This document shows, piece after piece, positions 27,507-53,970 of a stretch of DNA of 61,020 nt. The translations under genes were made by a program, and so were the position numbers. Positions within the stretch are counted from its first letter, which is position 1. Every line of letters begins with the position of its first letter. This stretch comes from Actinomycetota bacterium. Lineage in GTDB: Bacteria; Actinomycetota; AC-67. Location of the stretch: the NCBI GenBank assembly GCA_020201525.1, contig JAIVGO010000099.1, forward strand, positions 1-61,020. Reading direction: 5' to 3'. Under the pieces are notes generated by a model. That model worked only from the letters and a program-made list of their open reading frames with translations, was not told where the DNA came from and searched no databases.

Positions 27507-28097
27507 TCAGCCGGCTTCGAGGCTGCCGTCCAAGACGCGCTCCGCGATTTCCTTCATCGACACGCGCTTTTCCATTGCGGCTTTCTGTAGAAACCGGAAG
27601 GCGTCGCCTTCGGGAAGGCGATACGTATCCATAAGGCGCCCCTTGGCGCGGTCGATGAGCTTCCTCGTCTCGAGGCGCTCCGTCAGGTCGCCGACTTCCG
27701 CCGCCAGTGCGATGAATTGCTCGTAACGGCCGCGGGCGATCTCGATGGCAGGAAGCAAGTCCGTCTTTTGAAATGGCTTCACGAGATATCCCATGGCGCC
27801 GGCTTCGCTGGCCCGAGCTATCAGCTCGCGCTGAGAGTACGCAGTCAGAATGAGCACGGGAGCGATGCGATCCGCGGCGATTTCCTTCGCCGCCGACAAG
27901 CCGTCGCGGCCCGGCATCTTGATGTCCAGGATGACCAGGTCTGGAGCCGCCTCGCGCGCAATCGCGACGGCGGCGTCGCCGTCCGCGGCTTCCATGACCT
28001 CGTAGCCCTCTTCCTCCAGCATCTCGCGGAGATCCATGCGGATGATCGTTTCATCTTCCGCGATCAACACGCGCAATCGGCCGGTCATCTTCGCCAA
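27507..28097 (-). CDS. ANTAR-domain response regulator (PdtaR-like)
   Basis: 196 aa. The receiver carries LIAEDE...ILDIKMPGRDG...LTAY...YLVKP, and a C-terminal ANTAR helix region follows (LETRKLIDRAKGRLM...EAFRFLQKAAMEKRVSM). No cognate kinase is in the window. Confidence 0.85.
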   Translation of the reverse strand: MAKMTGRLRVLIAEDETIIRMDLREMLEEEGYEVMEAADGDAAVAIAREAAPDLVILDIKMPGRDGLSAAKEIAADRIAPVLILTAYSQRELIARASEAGAMGYLVKPFQKTDLLPAIEIARGRYEQFIALAAEVGDLTERLETRKLIDRAKGRLMDTYRLPEGDAFRFLQKAAMEKRVSMKEIAERVLDGSLEAG

Positions 28098-28114
28098 GTG
28101 TATCGGTGGCGACG

Positions 28115-28399
28115 TCAGCGGCCTTCTTCGAAGATTCGCTCCAGCAAACGGTCCTGCTCCGTGCGAAGCTCTTCGATCCGGACCTGTGCGTCGTGATGCG
28201 AGCGGCGCATGCGATCCAGGTCACCCTGCGCATCGCGATATTCCCGGTCGGCCAGCGGCGTCTCCGACACCAGCGCACGAATGCGTGCGTCCTCGGCGAC
28301 TTCCTCGACGAACGCCAGTTGCTCTTCGACGATGCGAAGGGCGGTTTGGGCCTCGGCAATCTCGCCGGACAGCTGACTGAGACGATCGTGAACCTTCAC
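28115..28399 (-). CDS. small coiled-coil hypothetical protein
   Basis: 94 aa counted from GTG 28399, which is preceded by AGGAGG with a 5-nt spacer. The sequence is heptad-like and acidic/basic (LSGEIAEAQTALRIVEEQLAFVEEV...). The longer track ORF would run through the terminator hairpin. Confidence 0.5.
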   Translation of the reverse strand: MKVHDRLSQLSGEIAEAQTALRIVEEQLAFVEEVAEDARIRALVSETPLADREYRDAQGDLDRMRRSHHDAQVRIEELRTEQDRLLERIFEEGR

Positions 28400-46784: not shown

Positions 46785-47675
46785 CTACGTGATGTCGCGC
46801 CGCCGGAAGGTGGCCGTCGACAGCTCAAAGATTCCCAATGCATAGGCGGCGACGAGCAGTCCCGCGCCGAGTGTCGAGCGGTACGGGAACTCGGTCATGT
46901 CCTCCGCGATCAGGAACCGGCCGGCGTTGAGCGTCAGCAGCCACCGCTGATAGCCGGGAAGCAGGCCGCGGATGATGTTCTCGATCACGGCGATGTACAC
47001 GAACGCGATGCCGATGGCCGCTGCCGTGTTGCGAGCGACGTTCGCAATCGAGACCCCGATCATGGACGCTATGACTGCCAGCGTCGCACCACGAAGAACC
47101 GTTCCCGCTACGTCGCGATACCACATTCCGTTAAGTCCGGCCGTGTCGCCGCGAAAAATGGCCGCAGGAACGAGAGCGGCCCCAAGGATGATCTCAAAGA
47201 CCACAGCCCCGGCGAAAACGACGGCAGCGCACCCGATCATCTTCGCGGCGACCACGCGGTACCGCCTCGGTTCCCACGCAAGCAAGGTCACAATCGTCCC
47301 GTGGCTCCATTCGGCACCGATAAAGGTTGCGCCGATTGCCAGACCGAGAATGACCATGAAAGTCGCCGTTCCTTTGACGACATCGCGGAACGAGGAGAGG
47401 TGGAATTGCTTATCGATTCGAACGTTGTCGGCGTTGAATTGCTCGTCACAGAACTGCTGCGGATCGAGCTCCACACCGGGCGGGGCGTCGAACGGCTTGA
47501 TTTCCCCGCTCAGGCACCGCGCGTGCTCCGAAGCCACGGCGGCGCGCGCGCGAGCCAAACGTTCCGGCGTCGTGCGGTGCGATTTCAAAAAGACGGTCGT
47601 CCCGGCGACGACGGTGATGATCAACAGAGCGAGGACGAGCAACCGAATCCCGCGCCGCGCCGTCAGGCGCGTCAT
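46785..47675 (-). CDS. ABC-2-type transporter permease
   Basis: Start ATG 47675 (MTRLTARRGIRLLVLALLIITVV), with a large first extracytoplasmic loop and then five hydrophobic helices. It lies 20 nt after the ATPase gene. Confidence 0.7.
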   Translation of the reverse strand: MTRLTARRGIRLLVLALLIITVVAGTTVFLKSHRTTPERLARARAAVASEHARCLSGEIKPFDAPPGVELDPQQFCDEQFNADNVRIDKQFHLSSFRDVVKGTATFMVILGLAIGATFIGAEWSHGTIVTLLAWEPRRYRVVAAKMIGCAAVVFAGAVVFEIILGAALVPAAIFRGDTAGLNGMWYRDVAGTVLRGATLAVIASMIGVSIANVARNTAAAIGIAFVYIAVIENIIRGLLPGYQRWLLTLNAGRFLIAEDMTEFPYRSTLGAGLLVAAYALGIFELSTATFRRRDIT

Positions 47676-47695
47676 CTCCACGCCGACGAGCCGTC

Positions 47696-48628
47696 TCAAA
47701 CGGCCACCTCTTCCACGACGGGATCCTGCGTGAGCTCGAGGAAGACCGTTTCCAAATCGGCTTCGTCGGGACGGAGCTCGGTGAGATACAGCCCTTGATC
47801 GGCCAGCACTTTCGTGATGAACGCAGCATCGGAAGGCGGGCTCGCAACACGCAACGCATCTCCGTCGCGTGTTGCATCGAGCCCGGCCGTCTGCAATGCG
47901 GAGAGCGCGAGGTCGGGACGCTCCACGCGGAGAAACAAACCCGTTGCGCGGCCTTGCGACAGAACCTCGTGGACCGAACCGGCTGCGACGCACCGCCCTC
48001 GAGTGAGGATGGCGACGCGGTCGCACACCTGTTGAACTTCGGACAGGATGTGGCTGGAAACGAAAACCGTCCGGCCCTCGTTCGCAAGCCGTTTGATCAA
48101 GTCCCGAATTTCTTTGATGCCGGCGGGGTCGAGCCCGTTCGCCGGCTCATCGAGAATCAACAGCTCGGGGTCTTTGAGTAAAGCCGCCGCGATTCCGAGG
48201 CGCTGCCGCATACCGAGCGAATACGTTTTGACAACGTCATCGGCGCGATCGGCGAGACCGACGCGCTCGAGAATGTCATCCACCGAAGTGGCACCGATGC
48301 CGTTAATGCGTCCGAGCAGCTGAAGATTGAGCTTGCCGCTGAATGTCGGGAAGAGCGCCGGAGTCTCGACGATAGATCCGATGCGCCGAATGACCGACGG
48401 CAGATCGCAGCGTGCTTCGGCGCCGAGGATCCTGCACCGGCCGGCCGTCGGCCGGACGAGGTCGAGTAAGCAGCGAATCGTCGTGGTCTTCCCGGAGCCG
48501 TTCGGTCCGAGGAAGCCGAAAACTCCTCCCTCCGGCACGACGAGGTCCAAACCGGCGACGGCGACCGTGACCCCGCCGCGAAGACGGCGATACTCCTTCT
48601 TCAACCCTTCGATCTCAATGATGGCCAT
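47696..48628 (-). CDS. ABC transporter ATP-binding protein (ABC-2 exporter type)
   Basis: Start ATG 48628 (MAIIEIEGLKKEY), with Walker A GPNGSGKTT, signature YSLGMRQRL and Walker B LLILDEPANGLDP. Confidence 0.9.
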   Translation of the reverse strand: MAIIEIEGLKKEYRRLRGGVTVAVAGLDLVVPEGGVFGFLGPNGSGKTTTIRCLLDLVRPTAGRCRILGAEARCDLPSVIRRIGSIVETPALFPTFSGKLNLQLLGRINGIGATSVDDILERVGLADRADDVVKTYSLGMRQRLGIAAALLKDPELLILDEPANGLDPAGIKEIRDLIKRLANEGRTVFVSSHILSEVQQVCDRVAILTRGRCVAAGSVHEVLSQGRATGLFLRVERPDLALSALQTAGLDATRDGDALRVASPPSDAAFITKVLADQGLYLTELRPDEADLETVFLELTQDPVVEEVAV

Positions 48629-48678: not shown

Positions 48679-49176
48679 CTAGCTCAAGTCCGCGCAGCCA
48701 ATCTTTGCACCGGTGACCGGCGCGTGCACCACCACCGAAACCGCCTCGCTGCGTGCGAGATGATCGACTTTGGTCCAGCCGTTTCCGATGCCTTCGTCGT
48801 CCGTCGTAAAAGGACCCGGCCAGATTTCGTTCGATGCCAGGGTCGCTGAGATCGAGGTATCGAGCTTGTAGTGCCCGTCCGCGTCGCCGTTTCCGCACGC
48901 CTGCTTGTGAACGTGCGATGCGTACGTCGTGTTCGGCGCGAGTCCTTCGACGTGAATTGCGACGATCGTTTTGCCGTCGGCCGTCCGCACCATCTGTGCG
49001 TGGCCGGATATGTCTTGGTACTGCGCGTACGCGGCGTCGTTCAGGGCGGCAGCAAATGCTCCGACCTCGCCACGCGTCACTTGAGCTCCCGCCGCGTTTG
49101 CCGGAGCGGATGCGACGATGAAGAGCGCCGACGTCAGCGACAGGACCGCTGTCACACGACCAAGTTTCTTAACCAT
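48679..49176 (-). CDS. secreted Cu,Zn-superoxide-dismutase-like protein (apparently lacking the zinc subloop)
   Basis: Start ATG 49176 follows GGGGGAGA, and the signal peptide ends ANA-AG. The copper-ligand pattern HVHKQACGNGDADGHY...VVVHA and the disulfide Cys (IGC) are present. The H..GDL zinc-loop motif is not recognisable. Confidence 0.7.
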   Translation of the reverse strand: MVKKLGRVTAVLSLTSALFIVASAPANAAGAQVTRGEVGAFAAALNDAAYAQYQDISGHAQMVRTADGKTIVAIHVEGLAPNTTYASHVHKQACGNGDADGHYKLDTSISATLASNEIWPGPFTTDDEGIGNGWTKVDHLARSEAVSVVVHAPVTGAKIGCADLS

Positions 49177-49401
49177 GTCTCCCCCTTTCGTTCGAGCCGG
49201 GCGGCTCGCTCGTGACCCCATGGGCAACGAGACGAAGCAGACGGTAACCGGTCGGGGAACGAAGGCCTACCCGGCCTTCACCACAGCTTGTGTTGCAGAT
49301 TCACCGGAATCGAGGGGTGCCAGTACCCCAGGAAACTCCCCTTCTTTTAGGGGAAGACACCCTATCGGCGGGTCCCGCGCGAGGTTGATAATCAATCGCG
49401 G

Positions 49402-50724
49402 GTGAACGTGAGAGGCGATGTTTCGGTATCGGGGCGCGGCGACCTTTGGCCGAGCGCTCTTCTTGCGATCGGGCTGGCCGCCTACATTGCCGTCGTCTAT
49501 GCAATCATCGTCGTCGCGGCAGGGACGGCAGCCGGTCCCGGATCGGCGAACGGCTTGTTGACGATCGTGGCCACTGCGATCGTGGCGGTCACATTCGCAC
49601 CCGTGCGCGTACGGCTAACGGGAGCCATCAACCGGCTGGTCTACGGCAAGCGTGCGACGCCGTACGAAATTCTTTCGCAATTCGCCGACCGAGTTGCACA
49701 GACGTATGCAAGCGAGGAGGTGCTTTCGAACCTCGCCCGCACGATCACGGATGGGATCGGCGGAGCACACACGCAAATATGGCTTCGCGTCGAGGATGAC
49801 CTCAGGCTCGCTGCCGAATTTCCCGGCGCCAGAACCCCGGACACACCGCTTCCGTTACGCGGCAACGACTTGCCAAAGATGCCCGGCGGTGGCTTCGTCG
49901 GCGCGGTGCGTCACATGGGTGATCTGCTCGGAGCGATAACCGCCACGAAGCGCGGCGGCGAGCCACTCAATCCGGTCGAGTCACGCCTGCTGTCGGACAT
50001 CGCTTCCCAAGCAGGCCCGGTCTTGCGAAATGTGCGCCTGACGGCAGAGCTCGAGGCGCATCTTCTAAAGATCACTACGCAAGCCGAGGAGCTGCGGGTA
50101 TCGCGCCGGCGTATCGTTGCGGCGCACGACGCGGAACGGCGGCGCCTCGAGCGGGACATCCACGACGGCGCGCAGCAACATCTGGTCGCACTTGCCGTGA
50201 AGGCCCGTCTCGCTTCGACGGTTGTGGGGAAGCGCCCGGACAAGCTGGACGAGATGCTTGCGGAGCTTCGATCGGTAACCGACGGTGCTTTGGACACGTT
50301 GCGCAATCTCAGCAGAGGAATCTATCCGGCGGGATTGCAAGAGCTCGGTGTCGCGCAGGCGCTCGCCGCACACGCGCACATCGCAGGCCTCGATGTCGAG
50401 GTCAAGGCGAAGGACTTTCCACGGTACGAACCCGACGTCGAGGCCACGCTGTACTTCGTCTGTCTGGAAGCGCTGCAGAACACGTCGAAATATTCCGGCG
50501 CGGCCGGTGCCATCGTGCTGCTGGATCGTACGCCGTCCTCGATCCGGTTCTCGGTGCGCGACGACGGTCACGGATTCGATCCCGCGACCGTGAAACGCGG
50601 CGCGGGACTCGAAAACATGGGCGACCGTCTGGCCGCCGCCGGCGGATCACTTCTGATTCAATCGTCGCCCGGAAAAGGCACGTTGCTCTCCGGGGAGATC
50701 CAGGCAGTCCCGGTAGGTGACTGA
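49402..50724 (+). CDS. sensor histidine kinase (2 TM, GAF-like, HisKA_3, HATPase_c)
   Basis: 440 aa. The H-box is ERRRLERDIHDGAQQHL (His codon 50161-50163), the N-box LEALQNTSKY, G1 DDGHGFD and G2 GAGLENM. Confidence 0.88.
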   Translation: MNVRGDVSVSGRGDLWPSALLAIGLAAYIAVVYAIIVVAAGTAAGPGSANGLLTIVATAIVAVTFAPVRVRLTGAINRLVYGKRATPYEILSQFADRVAQTYASEEVLSNLARTITDGIGGAHTQIWLRVEDDLRLAAEFPGARTPDTPLPLRGNDLPKMPGGGFVGAVRHMGDLLGAITATKRGGEPLNPVESRLLSDIASQAGPVLRNVRLTAELEAHLLKITTQAEELRVSRRRIVAAHDAERRRLERDIHDGAQQHLVALAVKARLASTVVGKRPDKLDEMLAELRSVTDGALDTLRNLSRGIYPAGLQELGVAQALAAHAHIAGLDVEVKAKDFPRYEPDVEATLYFVCLEALQNTSKYSGAAGAIVLLDRTPSSIRFSVRDDGHGFDPATVKRGAGLENMGDRLAAAGGSLLIQSSPGKGTLLSGEIQAVPVGD

Positions 50725-53339
50725 TGCGATTTCTTATGCCGATTATTCCCGTCTCGCTTATCGCAATCATTTTCATCGCAGCAGACCGTCTTCTGCCCGT
50801 CCTTCGTGCGCGTATCGATGCGCATCGAAAACATCCGCGGGACGGCGTTGTGTTCAAGACGTTCTTCGTCCTGTTCGCTGCGGCGATCATCGTCTGGCTC
50901 ACGGCGGGTTTCGTTCCTGCCGTCGTCCGCGCTGCCCCATCGCTTCATGCGCGACTGCACAGCGGTGCGGGAAATAGCGCACCCGTCAAGCTGTCGGCCC
51001 GCAATTTTCAATTCAGCGAGACATACCTCACGATTCCGGCACATCGCAGCGCGACGATCCTGTTCAGGAACTACGATGTGTCCATTCAGCACAACTTCGC
51101 CCTGTACGACGTCGATGGTATGGCCGACCAAGAGTACGAGGGCCTTTCCGAAGACGCCGGTCCGGTGTTCTCGAGTAGCGCGTTCGCCGGGAGCGGAACG
51201 AGAGAGTTCTCTTTTGTCGCCCCCTCCCCCGGGTTCTATCTCTTCCAGTGTGACGTGACCGATGAAGAGTTCGGCGACCACAACACGGCGATGACTGGAT
51301 GGATCAACATCGTTCCGAGCGGGCTTGCGCCGGAAACGCTCAAAGGAGGTGTCGTTCGGGATCTCGAGCGCGGTGCAGCGAGCGCGTATCACTACGCAGA
51401 ACGACCGGGTCAAGTCGCGCTCGATTATCTGTTCAGCATCTCCACCCTCGCCCTAGGCATCTTCCTCGTTCGCAAGCGGCCGCTCGACCGCGTGGCCCGG
51501 TTGCTGGGCGTCGCAATGATCGGAACGGCGGCGGCATACAACATTCAAAGCCACGCAGCGCTCGACGTCCTCCCCAGCCTCGCCGGCTTCATCCATCCCT
51601 TGTTCGTGCACCCGGTGTCCGGGATTCTGTATTTGTACGCGCTCGTTCTCTTCCCCGACGGCAAGCTTGTTCCGCATTTCTCCAACCGCACGGTCCACGC
51701 GCTGTATCGGCCCGCCGTCTTCGGGGCGTTCATCATCGCGCTCGGCGTCGGCGGCTTGAGCGAGCCGTCACCGGGACCCGGGCACGCCGCCGCGTTCGTC
51801 GCGCTGTTTGGTCTTTTGGTGCCCCTCGTCGGCTTCGCAGCGCAGCTCTACCGGTATCGCTACGCCCACAGCCCCGAGCTGAAGCAACAATCGAAGGTAC
51901 TTCTGTGGGCCCTTGGTCCCGCGCTTGTCTTCGGAGCCGCCGTGGTGCTCATTCGCCAGCTGGGCGGGCCGAGCGGAACGTTCCAAGGCGCGCGTCTGCA
52001 TGATCTCCAGGCATTCACGTTCCGGCTGTACCAACCAGTTTTTATCGTGATCCCCGCCGCGGTCGTTGTCGGGATCCTGCGGTTCCGGCTGTGGGATCTG
52101 GACGTCGTCATCAACAAGGCCATTCTGTACGGCTCTCTAGCGGGATTCATCGCTGCAGCCTATGTCGCCGTCGTCGTCGGGATTGGGCTTCTCTTGGGCG
52201 ATACCGGCAACCCATTCCTGTCGGTGGCGACCCTCGTCGCCGTCGCCGTTGCTTTCGAGCCGGTCCGCGAGCGATTGCGCGGCTTCGCAAACAAGCTCGT
52301 GTACGGCACGCGTGCCACTCCGTACCAAATGATGGCGGAGTTCTCCCAGAGCCTCACCCAATCGCCGTCGACCGAGGACGTCCTGCCGCTCATCGCGGAA
52401 TACGGTGCGCGCTGCGTGGGAGGTGCGCGAAGCGACGTTGCGCTGTTTCTTCCGGACGGAACCACGCGGACGACCTCATGGCCGGCCCGCGACGCGAGCG
52501 GACAGTTCGAACGCACGTTCCCGGTCCTGCACCAGGGAGAGATAATCGGTGAGGTTGCGGTCGCGAAAGCGGCGGGAGATCCATGGACGTCCGCCGACGA
52601 AAGAGTGCTCTCCGCGTTGACCTCTCAAGCAGCGGTCGCGCTGCACGGCGCCCGCCTGACGGCGCAGCTCGAAGAGCGCTTGAAGACGATCTCTTCGCAA
52701 GCCGCCGATCTTGCCGAGTCCCGAAAGCGCATCCTCTCGGCGAGAGACGCAGAGCGGAATCGCTTGGAGCGAGAGATCCGAAGCTCGGTTGAGCAGCGGC
52801 TCCTTGTGATGCAAGAGACGCTTTCGGATCCGGCCGCGTCCGAGTCGATATTTCTCCCGCTGCTCGACGAGGCGACGGACATTCTCGAGAGATTGCGCAC
52901 GATTTCGCACGGCGTCTTCCCCTCTCTCCTTGCCGACCGCGGTCTCGTCGCCGCTCTCGAAGCGCAACTACGAAAAATCGAATCTGGGTCCGACGTCCGG
53001 TTGGAAAGCGACCTGCCCGACGAACGTTTCGACCGAGGCGTGGAGGCATCGCTGTACTTCTGTTGCGTCGAGGCGGTGAAAGACACGATACGACGCGCGG
53101 GCCGCACTCCCATCACGTTGCGGCTTGCTCAAAACGGGGATCGCGTCGAATTCTCCATCTCCGGAGCCGCCGTGGATCCGGCGCTGGTGCAAGAGATTCG
53201 GGATCGCGTCGAGGCGCTCGGCGGAAGCCTCACCGCCGAAAAAAGGACGCTGTTTGGTTCCGTTTTCGCTTACGAGCCGGATACTTTCGCCCACGCCGCC
53301 GTCAGCACATCGGGGTCCAGCATCGCCTTGGAGATGTAA
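50724..53339 (+). CDS. cupredoxin-domain polytopic membrane sensor with GAF-like and degenerate HisKA_3/HATPase modules (predicted pseudokinase)
   Basis: 871 aa. Its ATG overlaps the upstream kinase stop (TGATG). After 2 TM there is a ~110-aa cupredoxin-like segment (IQHNFALY...FYLFQCDV...GDHNTAMTGWINIV), then about 8 TM. The C-terminal ~370 aa are paralogous to the upstream kinase, but the H-box reads LEREIRSSVEQ (Arg codon 52779-52781), the N-box reads EAVKD, and there is no DxGxG. Confidence 0.8.
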   Translation: MRFLMPIIPVSLIAIIFIAADRLLPVLRARIDAHRKHPRDGVVFKTFFVLFAAAIIVWLTAGFVPAVVRAAPSLHARLHSGAGNSAPVKLSARNFQFSETYLTIPAHRSATILFRNYDVSIQHNFALYDVDGMADQEYEGLSEDAGPVFSSSAFAGSGTREFSFVAPSPGFYLFQCDVTDEEFGDHNTAMTGWINIVPSGLAPETLKGGVVRDLERGAASAYHYAERPGQVALDYLFSISTLALGIFLVRKRPLDRVARLLGVAMIGTAAAYNIQSHAALDVLPSLAGFIHPLFVHPVSGILYLYALVLFPDGKLVPHFSNRTVHALYRPAVFGAFIIALGVGGLSEPSPGPGHAAAFVALFGLLVPLVGFAAQLYRYRYAHSPELKQQSKVLLWALGPALVFGAAVVLIRQLGGPSGTFQGARLHDLQAFTFRLYQPVFIVIPAAVVVGILRFRLWDLDVVINKAILYGSLAGFIAAAYVAVVVGIGLLLGDTGNPFLSVATLVAVAVAFEPVRERLRGFANKLVYGTRATPYQMMAEFSQSLTQSPSTEDVLPLIAEYGARCVGGARSDVALFLPDGTTRTTSWPARDASGQFERTFPVLHQGEIIGEVAVAKAAGDPWTSADERVLSALTSQAAVALHGARLTAQLEERLKTISSQAADLAESRKRILSARDAERNRLEREIRSSVEQRLLVMQETLSDPAASESIFLPLLDEATDILERLRTISHGVFPSLLADRGLVAALEAQLRKIESGSDVRLESDLPDERFDRGVEASLYFCCVEAVKDTIRRAGRTPITLRLAQNGDRVEFSISGAAVDPALVQEIRDRVEALGGSLTAEKRTLFGSVFAYEPDTFAHAAVSTSGSSIALEM

Positions 53340-53659
53340 GTCACGGCACCTGCTTCGAGCGCGCGCTGCTCGTATTCGGCCGCGGAGTACGTCGAACACA
53401 CGATTACCTGCACTCCATGGTGCTGGTCGCGGATTTTGCGCGTCGCTTCTATCCCGTCGAGCCCCGGCAAGTTGACGTCCATGAGGACAAGATCCGGCCG
53501 CATCTCACGAACCGCTTCGATTGAATCCTCGGCGCTTTCAACCGCACCGATGAACTCAAAGCCGGGTGTCAGCATGACCACCATTTTGGCGGCATCGCGA
53601 AACGGGGCTTGATCGTCGACAACAAGTACGCGGACGGCCAACGGCGCTCCCGGTTGCAC
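53270..53659 (-). CDS. single-domain response regulator (receiver only, no output domain)
   Basis: 129 aa with an intact acidic pocket VVDDQ, phospho-acceptor LVLMDVNLPG, CSTY and ISKA. The ORF ends directly after the receiver. Confidence 0.8.
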   Translation of the reverse strand: MQPGAPLAVRVLVVDDQAPFRDAAKMVVMLTPGFEFIGAVESAEDSIEAVREMRPDLVLMDVNLPGLDGIEATRKIRDQHHGVQVIVCSTYSAAEYEQRALEAGAVTYISKAMLDPDVLTAAWAKVSGS

Positions 53660-53703: not shown

Positions 53704-53970
53704 TCAGGTTCGCTGCGCGCTGCGCTCACGGATGGCCGCGAGAAGACGCTCCGCCGTCGTGCGCAGCTCATCGGCAACGAACCGAAGATCCTCGATTTCA
53801 CCCTTGGCTTCGCCCGAATCGTCGGACTGAATTCGCTCGACGGTTTGGCCGAGTAGTTGGGCGCGCATCCGCGCGTTGTTCGAAATCTCGTCGATCTCGT
53901 TGATCGTGAGTCGCAACAGCCACCGGATACGCCGCTCGCTGTATTGCAACTGTTCACGATCGTCGCTCAA
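53704..53970 (-). CDS. small alpha-helical hypothetical protein
   Basis: 88 aa. The TTG start is preceded by GGAGGG with a 4-nt spacer. It lies 27 nt after the dnaE stop, and its composition is charged and helical. Confidence 0.5.
   Translation of the reverse strand: MSDDREQLQYSERRIRWLLRLTINEIDEISNNARMRAQLLGQTVERIQSDDSGEAKGEIEDLRFVADELRTTAERLLAAIRERSAQRT

Follow-up and report, generated by a model that had tools for sequence, protein, structure and literature searches.

What can a histidine kinase-like protein contribute to signaling once its catalytic core has lost the phosphate-accepting histidine and the ATP-binding motifs? The question is raised by an 871-amino-acid (aa) protein encoded in a 61,020-nucleotide (nt) stretch of Actinomycetota DNA (GenBank assembly GCA_020201525.1, contig JAIVGO010000099.1; this whole stretch is referred to as the window). 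The protein combines an extracytoplasmic cupredoxin domain with a polytopic membrane domain and a degenerate kinase core of the HisKA_3 type, and its gene is translationally coupled to that of an intact short kinase. In the following, the two proteins are called the sensor and the partner. With moderate confidence we propose that the two proteins make up a split sensor kinase, of which the sensor is the catalytically dead subunit that perceives the signal and controls the partner kinase. The two genes and the parts of the sensor, with transmembrane helices abbreviated as TM, are as follows.

49402..50724, plus strand: intact short HisKA_3 kinase, the partner (440 aa); two TM with a short loop, GAF-like, DHp and CA domains, without a sensor domain
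50724..53339, plus strand: cupredoxin-bearing polytopic sensor pseudokinase (871 aa, 11 TM; uninterrupted open reading frame, ORF)
50976..51323, plus strand: extracytoplasmic cupredoxin domain of the sensor, residues ~85–200 (phmmer, profile, Foldseek and ligand conservation)
51090–51092, 51249–51251, 51279–51281 and 51291–51293, plus strand: codons of the cupredoxin ligands H123, C176, H186 and M190, respectively
51336..52103, plus strand: membrane sensor domain, residues 205–460, TM3–TM9, with conserved outer-face H223, D234, Y235, N273, H277, H291, H296 and H354
52104..52643, plus strand: TM10–TM11, juxtamembrane linker (ANKLVYGTRATPYQ) and GAF-like domain, a module common to the partner kinase (BLASTP alignment to the partner)
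52644..52913, plus strand: DHp-like helical hairpin with degenerate H-box (R686, codon 52779–52781; alignment and model)
52914..53273, plus strand: CA-like (Bergerat-fold) domain, with the N-box Asn replaced by D787, G1 missing, and G2 and ATP lid deleted (alignment and model)

The stop codon of the partner gene (TGA, 50722–50724) and the start codon of the sensor gene (ATG, 50724–50726) have one base in common and the sensor frame is open throughout, as stated in a preliminary description of the locus that had been made from the sequence alone. All peptide strings which that description quoted from both proteins were located in the translations. Its count of about eight TM after the outer domain needs correction: hydropathy and an AlphaFold2 model place nine TM there and 11 in total. 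Short loops assigned to the inside contain 17 lysine plus arginine residues and those assigned to the outside only one, a bias that places the cupredoxin domain outside and the kinase-like part inside the cell. The AlphaFold2 model of the sensor, which is based on 87 sequences, has a mean predicted local distance difference test score (pLDDT) of 83.5. Database searches returned 15 full-length relatives of 871–973 aa with 37–59% identity, and 54 positions are invariant in an alignment of 17 sequences that comprises these relatives and two more distant cupredoxin-bearing proteins. All family members come from uncultured Actinomycetota-like metagenome contigs; a scan of the GTDB species genomes yielded generic matches to the C-terminal kinase part only (Kribbella, uncultured Actinomycetota) and no orthologue with the sensor module.

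The C-terminal part of the sensor is indeed paralogous to the upstream kinase, and that kinase is intact, as had been supposed. Residues 466–851 of the sensor align to residues 19–432 of the partner with 33% identity (BLASTP, expectation value [E] 7e-57), and the partner, whose motifs are all present, matches the Pfam families HisKA_3 (1e-14) and HATPase_c (3e-7). At the catalytic positions the two proteins differ as follows.

H-box: ERDIHDGAQQH in the partner, EREIRSSVEQR in the sensor (R686 at the position of the His)
N-box: EALQN in the partner, EAVKD in the sensor (D787 at the position of the Asn)
G1: DDGHGFD in the partner, SGAAVD in the sensor
G2 and ATP lid: GAGLENM in the partner, deleted in the sensor

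No Pfam match to HisKA_3 or HATPase_c was obtained in the sensor even at an E value of 0.5, while its GAF-like region gave weak matches to Pfam GAF (6.6e-4). The phospho-acceptor position is occupied by R, S or T in all five members of the clade to which the sensor belongs (the window clade). Neither a conserved H-box His nor an intact N/G1/G2 lid emerged from the alignments, which substantiates the earlier claim that both the acceptor and the ATP-binding motifs have been lost. Because the four catalytic features that define the family were looked for and are missing, the sensor is not a HisKA_3 kinase in a functional sense. Judged by alignment and model, its tail descends from HisKA_3 kinases of the NarX/DesK/LiaS type but fails their catalytic definition and is a pseudokinase.

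The scaffold of the tail has been kept. The module composed of TM10–TM11, the linker and the GAF-like domain shows 60% identity even across clades, with ANxLVYGxRATPYE as the linker consensus. The model is confident over residues 531–850, where a GAF-like domain is followed by a long DHp hairpin and a CA domain of the alpha/beta type; a long helix spans residues 623–700, and the blocks over residues 771–850 have pLDDT 91–95. Foldseek comparison of the tail returned the DHp-CA region of DesK and the CA domain of VraS (TM-score 0.70, target-normalised). Within the window clade, conservation of the dead domains, expressed as pairwise identity, is 45% for DHp and 46% for CA as compared with 41% for the cupredoxin domain, which argues that the dead domains are under purifying constraint.

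Degeneration of the core is graded across the family, whose proteins are identified here by P numbers.

P0109, P0115, P0016 and P0017: acceptor His present, ATP site intact
P0101–P0103: acceptor His lost, ATP site looks intact
P0006–P0015 (the sister clade) and P0104: His kept in most, N-box Asn and G2 lost
Window clade, P0098–P0100, P0105, P0106 and P0116: His lost, ATP site lost

Since the sensor module is also found on the canonical kinases P0109 and P0115, cupredoxin input is not restricted to dead cores.

Pairing with a short kinase is a conserved trait of the degenerate sensors. Locus contexts (L numbers) were collected by exact-protein look-ups and one metagenome scan and were annotated with purpose-built hidden Markov models (HMMs). 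Thirteen distinct degenerate sensors have upstream DNA that can be read (window, L031, L033, L035, L037, L040, L041, L043, L045, L046, L050, L053/54 and L055), and in each case an intact short kinase is encoded directly upstream; the co-occurrence of the two genes is thus conserved. This count leaves aside L059, which has the same arrangement with a sensor cut before its kinase-like tail, and four sensors that start at a contig edge. Every readable motif of these upstream kinases is canonical, and where gene calls exist the start–stop overlaps between sensor and partner are mostly 1–16 nt long. The solitary canonical cupredoxin kinases P0017 and P0109 are accompanied by a NarL-type regulator and by no second kinase. 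At L042 (P0115) both members of the pair look intact and the short kinase is located downstream. At L061–L064, L066, L067 and L072 the roles are reversed in that the large sensor kinase is intact and the adjacent short kinase lacks the His, the N, G1 and G2 motifs, or both; hence, the pair persists whichever member dies.

In a neighbour-joining tree the tails of the degenerate sensors form one clade and their partner kinases another with similar internal branching, which points to ancient, co-inherited paralogues. A recent tandem duplication is rejected on the same tree because the clades of tails and partners are separate and old. The partner is the counterpart of TM10–TM11, linker, GAF-like, DHp and CA domains of the sensor and has no extracytoplasmic domain, so that labour is divided: the cupredoxin domain and a nine-TM input region reside on the dead member, and the catalytic motifs on the partner. 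A sensor without catalysis next to a catalyst without a sensor, kept together whichever of them degenerates, is the strongest argument that comparison of sequences provides for an obligate heteromer, and it is on this basis that we infer one.

The presence of a cupredoxin-type input domain, predicted in the preliminary description together with candidate His, Cys, His and Met ligands and an unusually long Cys-to-His loop, was confirmed by several approaches. In phmmer searches, sensor residues 80–204 alone match 6kol, a blue-copper domain protein of Roseiflexus (8.8e-7), and auracyanin A (5.6e-6), with QHN aligned on QHN and FQC on the ligand Cys. When a profile of the outer domain was made from 15 sequences, its matches were the cupredoxin domain of NirK (2.7e-9), auracyanin A (1e-8), rusticyanin, plastocyanin, amicyanin and pseudoazurin, and the four ligand positions were aligned. 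These ligands, H123, C176, H186 and M190, are invariant in 15 of 15 full-length relatives. Pfam Cupredoxin_1 was detected in seven of 17 relatives (best 5.8e-8) and does not match the window sensor itself. In the AlphaFold2 model strands extend across residues 88–197; block pLDDT values are mostly 87–94, with a dip to 63–78 over residues 131–150, and reach 91–94 in the Cys-His ligand loop (residues 171–190). Foldseek found auracyanins 6kol and 2aan as matches of the outer domain (target-normalised TM-scores 0.68 and 0.69, E ~2–4e-6, 22–25% identity) and returned AcoP and the CuA domain of N2OR as well. The ligand spacing of the window sensor is C-X9-H-X3-M, that is, with a spacer of nine residues between Cys and His, and the sister clade has the textbook loop C-D-V-H-P-x-x-M (C-X2-H-X3-M). 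By homology, predicted fold and complete type-1 ligand set the outer domain is a true cupredoxin, and its ligands lead us to infer that it binds copper.

Variants of the domain occur among the relatives. Sister-clade proteins P0006–P0014 (e.g., L033, 8001–10796) have an extra insertion of ~20 residues with a conserved C-x3-C pair (TSCRTRCS) before the His-Asn strand, which may form a disulfide or an additional metal site and which the window clade does not have. In P0017 (L036, 727–3150), P0071 (L038, 1750–3417) and P0128 the cupredoxin domain is located in a different outer loop, between TM8 and TM9. The relocated domains are circularly permuted, with the Cys-His-Met strand pair first and the His-Asn half second, as is evident from BLASTP alignments that consist of two segments in swapped order. 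TM8–TM9-inserted, permuted cupredoxins are also present at L060–L062, L065 and L087.

Below the cupredoxin domain lies the membrane domain, which with 63% pairwise identity within the clade is the best-conserved part of the sensor. Residues H75, H79, H223, D234, Y235, N273, Q275, H277, H296 and H354, all of them on the outer face, are invariant in 17 cupredoxin-bearing proteins, and position 291 is a His in 16 of the 17 (87-sequence alignment). The outer-face histidines are mostly missing from 70 paralogues without a cupredoxin domain. Six of them (H75, H79, H223, H277, H291 and H296) are almost invariant across 46 proteins that carry the module, among which the type-1 ligands are intact in most and lost in several. 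An exhaustive search with residues 1–465 yielded 1067 representatives at E ≤1e-3, 74 of them at E ≤1e-30. Pfam and NCBIfam contain no family that covers the membrane domain with the His cluster and gave weak, scattered matches only (Nodulin-like, 0.037; PrsK, 3e-4 in P0109).

The six-His cluster co-occurs with a cupredoxin domain even where the latter occupies another outer loop, and in P0017, P0071 and P0128 it is unchanged despite the relocation and permutation of the cupredoxin domain. P0016 has six of the seven histidines and no cupredoxin domain at all. Because these proteins keep the cluster, it looks like the core of the sensory site, to which the cupredoxin domain was added as an accessory more than once. 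The sensing unit probably includes the six-His site in the membrane domain as well. P0114 and P0151 have the cupredoxin and six-His module joined to PP2C/SpoIIE phosphatase outputs, which take the place of the kinase-like tail.

Genes on either side of the pair provide a context for its possible output.

46785..47699 (start approximate), minus strand: ABC-2-type permease, last gene of the divergent operon (Pfam ABC2_membrane_2, 2.9e-11)
47696..48628, minus strand: ABC transporter ATPase of the DrrA-like exporter type, starting at MAIIEIEGL (Pfam ABC_tran, 2.3e-26)
48679..49176, minus strand: secreted protein resembling Cu-only superoxide dismutases (SODs), divergent from the kinase pair (165 aa; its Met is residue 18 of a 182-aa ORF)
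53270..53659, minus strand: stand-alone receiver (REC), convergent (Pfam Response_reg, 1.2e-25)

The SOD-like protein has no match in Pfam, in NCBIfam or, in a single-sequence phmmer search, in the PDB, and neither BLASTP nor hhalign relates the ORF significantly to the Pfam Sod_Cu proteins that occupy the equivalent slot in the sister clade. Its family comprises at least 864 homologues, and for some of these the Joint Genome Institute (JGI) gives the name Cu-Zn SOD. A profile of 40 of these sequences matches the Candida Cu-only SOD5 (4n3t) over its full length (E 1.7e-4). The AlphaFold2 model has a pLDDT of 86; its 50 best matches in Foldseek are without exception Cu/Zn SODs, with target-normalised TM-scores of up to 0.69. 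H88, H90, H102, H151, C94 and C161 (numbering of the 165-aa protein) are invariant in the 40 homologues, and on inspection the Zn-ligand loop appears to be missing. Thus, by profile and model, the gene looks like a member of a large, unannotated bacterial family of Cu-only-SOD-like proteins. The ABC ATPase matches the NCBIfam drrA subfamily (1.6e-59), yet below the family cut-off. SOD-like and ABC genes are found upstream in eight of eight cupredoxin-type loci with enough sequence, and a gene at the position of the ABC-2 permease is also present at L031, L033, L035, L037 and L042. The divergent intergenic region (49177–49401) has several blocks in common with L031, i.e., ACCCGGC, GTGCCAG, GGAAGACACCCT and, just 5' of the kinase start, GATAATC; judged from this sequence conservation they are possible promoter or operator elements. 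A search of the divergent promoter region of the window for inverted repeats gave none.

The receiver has D15, D16, D61, T90 and K111 all intact. Its gene and the sensor gene overlap in antisense orientation over the last ~23 codons of each (70 nt in the window), and such a convergent overlap is found at 12 loci (window, 53270–53339; L031, L033, L035, L041 and L045–L051), measuring 67–105 nt where gene calls exist. The tail-to-tail arrangement could cause transcriptional interference between the two genes. The conserved C-terminal tail of the sensor (AHxxxSxSGS...) was considered as a functional motif and rejected. It is disordered (pLDDT <50) and antisense to the C-terminal helix of the receiver (LDPD.L..AWA), and P0005, with no convergent receiver at its locus, lacks it; hence, the tail is most simply explained as a by-product of the overlap. 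A NarL-type regulator is encoded beside the receiver in the sister clade and directly downstream of the sensor at L040. Between the receiver gene and dnaE (53704–53970, minus strand) lies a conserved 88-aa helical ORF without a family match. Its product shares 74% identity with the last 80 aa of a 154-aa protein at L031, which has a weak N-terminal LuxR-type helix-turn-helix (GerE, 6.7e-4) that is missing in the window. A further receiver-domain ORF at 27510–28220 (minus strand; REC HMM, 4e-21) is positionally unrelated to the sensor locus.

Taking these data together, we propose the following course of events. An auracyanin-like type-1 copper domain would sit over a membrane domain with six or seven outer-face histidines, and this outer module would sense how the envelope stands with respect to copper and/or redox conditions. 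The signal would travel via TM10–TM11, the conserved linker and the retained GAF-like/DHp/CA scaffold, and it is most likely this common scaffold that pairs the sensor with the co-translated 440-aa kinase as a heteromer. The partner would autophosphorylate and pass the phosphate on to the convergently encoded receiver, and it may also phosphorylate a regulator encoded elsewhere, which in related lineages would be the NarL-type protein encoded beside the receiver or downstream of the sensor. The probable target is the divergent operon encoding the SOD-like protein and the ABC-2 exporter. In the sister clade, where the His is kept and the ATP site is dead, trans-phosphorylation of the sensor by the partner would be possible, as proposed for FasB–FasC. 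Loss of the acceptor His excludes this route for the window clade, so that control would have to be allosteric there, comparable to what has been proposed for RocA–CovS.

Several observations weigh against this proposal. All five proteins of the window clade carry an acidic insertion of 9–11 residues between the Cys and His ligands, and a loop so much longer than that of textbook cupredoxins might impair or alter the type-1 site. Distant family members (P0112–P0114, P0117 and P0120) have lost Cys or His ligands, and copper in the cupredoxin domain is thus not essential to every member. Some versions of the module end after TM11 without an output domain (P0107, P0108), which indicates that it can function without the kinase-like tail. 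A tblastn search of the 61-kb window returned receiver domains only and no NarL-type or other DNA-binding response regulator. Finally, the support for the heteromer is comparative and not physical.

It is tempting to go one step further, to a version to which we attach only a small chance. The outer module could be a redox-active copper machine in which the type-1 copper exchanges electrons with a second, His-ligated center (H75-x3-H79, H223, H277 and H291-x4-H296) at the membrane surface, possibly a binuclear, type-3-like one. Oxygen, superoxide or the redox poise of the envelope would be sensed in this way and relayed via the dead scaffold to the partner, which would control the Cu-only SOD and the exporter. 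If true, this would be the first blue-copper redox sensor in two-component signaling, and its family would be one whose pseudoenzymes can arise from either side of an obligate kinase pair.

Other explanations assign a different role to the dead tail or to the module as a whole. The tail might be a DivL-type scaffold for reverse signaling, in which the dead DHp/CA region binds the phosphorylated stand-alone receiver and feeds its state back to the partner or to the membrane module. DivL itself is a precedent of a pseudokinase that reads a receiver (PMC4211667), a convergent receiver with intact phospho-acceptor residues is present at 12 loci, and the linkage holds even for the clade of sensors without the His (window, L031). 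At L037, however, there is no receiver downstream, and at L040 its place is taken by the NarL-type regulator, while the sensor–partner pair is kept at both loci. Since the residues following the H-box diverge as well (RSSVEQR versus HDGAQQH), it is not obvious that docking of this receiver has been preserved, and we regard this explanation as unlikely. We are still more skeptical of the idea that the main role of the N-terminal module is that of a redox enzyme dependent on copper or of a membrane protein that handles copper, the tail being regulatory or vestigial. Six to seven outer-face histidines together with D234, Y235 and N273 beneath a type-1 domain do resemble electron-transfer enzymes more than a ligand pocket, and in P0107, P0108 and P0110–P0113 the module occurs without any output domain and with no kinase nearby. 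A dispensable tail is nevertheless hard to reconcile with the repeated fusion of the module to canonical HisKA_3 kinases, pseudokinases and PP2C phosphatases, with a degree of conservation of the dead tail that equals that of the cupredoxin domain, and with the live kinase that always accompanies it.

That the sensor is still an active kinase, using a non-canonical acceptor and an atypical nucleotide pocket, is highly improbable. The DHp and CA folds are retained, and some relatives keep the His (P0006–P0015) or an intact-looking CA domain (P0101–P0103). But DHp helix 1 of the sensor contains no His at all and thus offers no alternative acceptor, and the sole His of helix 2 (ISHGVFP) is an Arg in relatives; moreover, the Asn for Mg-ATP is replaced by Asp, G1 is gone, G2 and the lid are deleted, and the Pfam models for both kinase domains remain silent. 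Loss of all catalytic motifs would also be expected of a decaying duplicate without function, an explanation that is hardly credible given the intact full-length ORF, the 15 full-length relatives at 37–59% identity, the dead domains that are conserved like live ones, and the conserved synteny and translational coupling. Pseudogene decay is effectively ruled out by this conservation. The preferred explanation continues to be that of a sensing subunit without catalysis that acts through its partner.

How does this pair compare with systems that have been described? With respect to the input domain, the best match in sequence and structure is auracyanin, a membrane-anchored type-1 blue copper protein of Chloroflexi, with which His-Asn, Cys, His and Met are aligned. 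Auracyanins carry electrons as free-standing proteins, and their Cys-His loop is short. By contrast, the cupredoxin domain of the sensor is inserted between TM2 and TM3 and in the window clade has the acidic insertion of 9–11 residues. The copper sensors CusS, CopS and CorS have a PAS/PDC-like periplasmic domain, interfacial His/Met sites and canonical HisKA kinases; to our knowledge, none of them has a cupredoxin domain or a dead core. Two-component sensing of envelope copper is what the proposed system would share with them (for CorSR, see PMC3707914).

The preliminary description knew of no characterised sensor with a cupredoxin input and a dead HisKA_3 core, and this agrees with the open-access full-text literature, where our searches turned up neither a sensor kinase with a cupredoxin input nor the sensor module. 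The sole trace of such an architecture is the name 'histidine kinase/plastocyanin', which JGI assigned automatically to P0109. Few extracellular input folds of histidine kinases are known, and a type-1 copper input is undescribed in the open-access literature searched. The occurrence of one sensor module on live kinases, on His-less, ATP-site-less and fully dead cores, on PP2C phosphatases or on nothing constitutes a natural experiment in pseudoenzyme evolution, and obligate pairs in which either member is dead allow one to ask why dead kinase domains are retained. In addition, the locus ties envelope copper or redox sensing to a very large Cu-only-SOD-like family of uncultured Actinomycetota that is not covered by Pfam. 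Three features would each be of interest to specialists: the blue-copper input, the six-His site in the membrane, and the finding that degeneration can strike one or the other member of an obligate kinase pair.

With respect to the way of working, RocA of Streptococcus pyogenes, a membrane pseudokinase that acts through CovS (PMC7028121), is similar in being a polytopic membrane protein with a non-catalytic DHp/CA-like tail that acts via an intact histidine kinase. However, rocA is located away from covRS whereas the genes for sensor and partner are translationally coupled, and RocA has no recognisable extracytoplasmic cofactor domain, in contrast to the type-1 copper domain and the six-His membrane site of the sensor. 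CovS also has a sensor of its own, which the partner does not, and the kinase family is HisKA_3 here. The Fas system of the same species (FasB–FasC–FasA) resembles the window locus in having two adjacent kinase-like genes for a sensing and a catalytic member. FasC is the sensing member, whose kinase domain is dispensable; it is a proposed pseudokinase and heterodimerises with FasB, the catalytic member with a dispensable TM region (PMC12675982). The sister clade P0006–P0015 closely fits the trans-phosphorylation model proposed for this pair. The window sensor differs in having lost the acceptor His as well, so that no phosphate would flow through it, and input domain and phylum (Actinomycetota metagenomes) are unrelated.

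Two further systems are instructive. Like the heteromer proposed here, RetS–GacS of Pseudomonas aeruginosa involves control of one kinase-like protein by another through heteromeric DHp contacts (cited in PMC12675982). In contrast to the sensor, RetS is a hybrid with receiver domains and is uncoupled from GacS; each of the two has its own periplasmic sensor, and a copper domain is absent. In the DivL–CckA–DivK system of Caulobacter a histidine kinase homologue without acceptor His (Tyr in DivL) regulates a live kinase, and a single-domain receiver is involved (PMC4211667, PMC5361649). DivL is cytoplasmic and polar, receives PAS inputs and is not co-transcribed with CckA, whereas the sensor has an extracytoplasmic metal domain and is subject to strict gene pairing. 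Judged by these analogies, the way in which sensor and partner would work together resembles that of RocA–CovS, FasC–FasB, RetS–GacS and DivL–CckA, and the pair probably constitutes one copper- or redox-sensing switch of an undescribed type.

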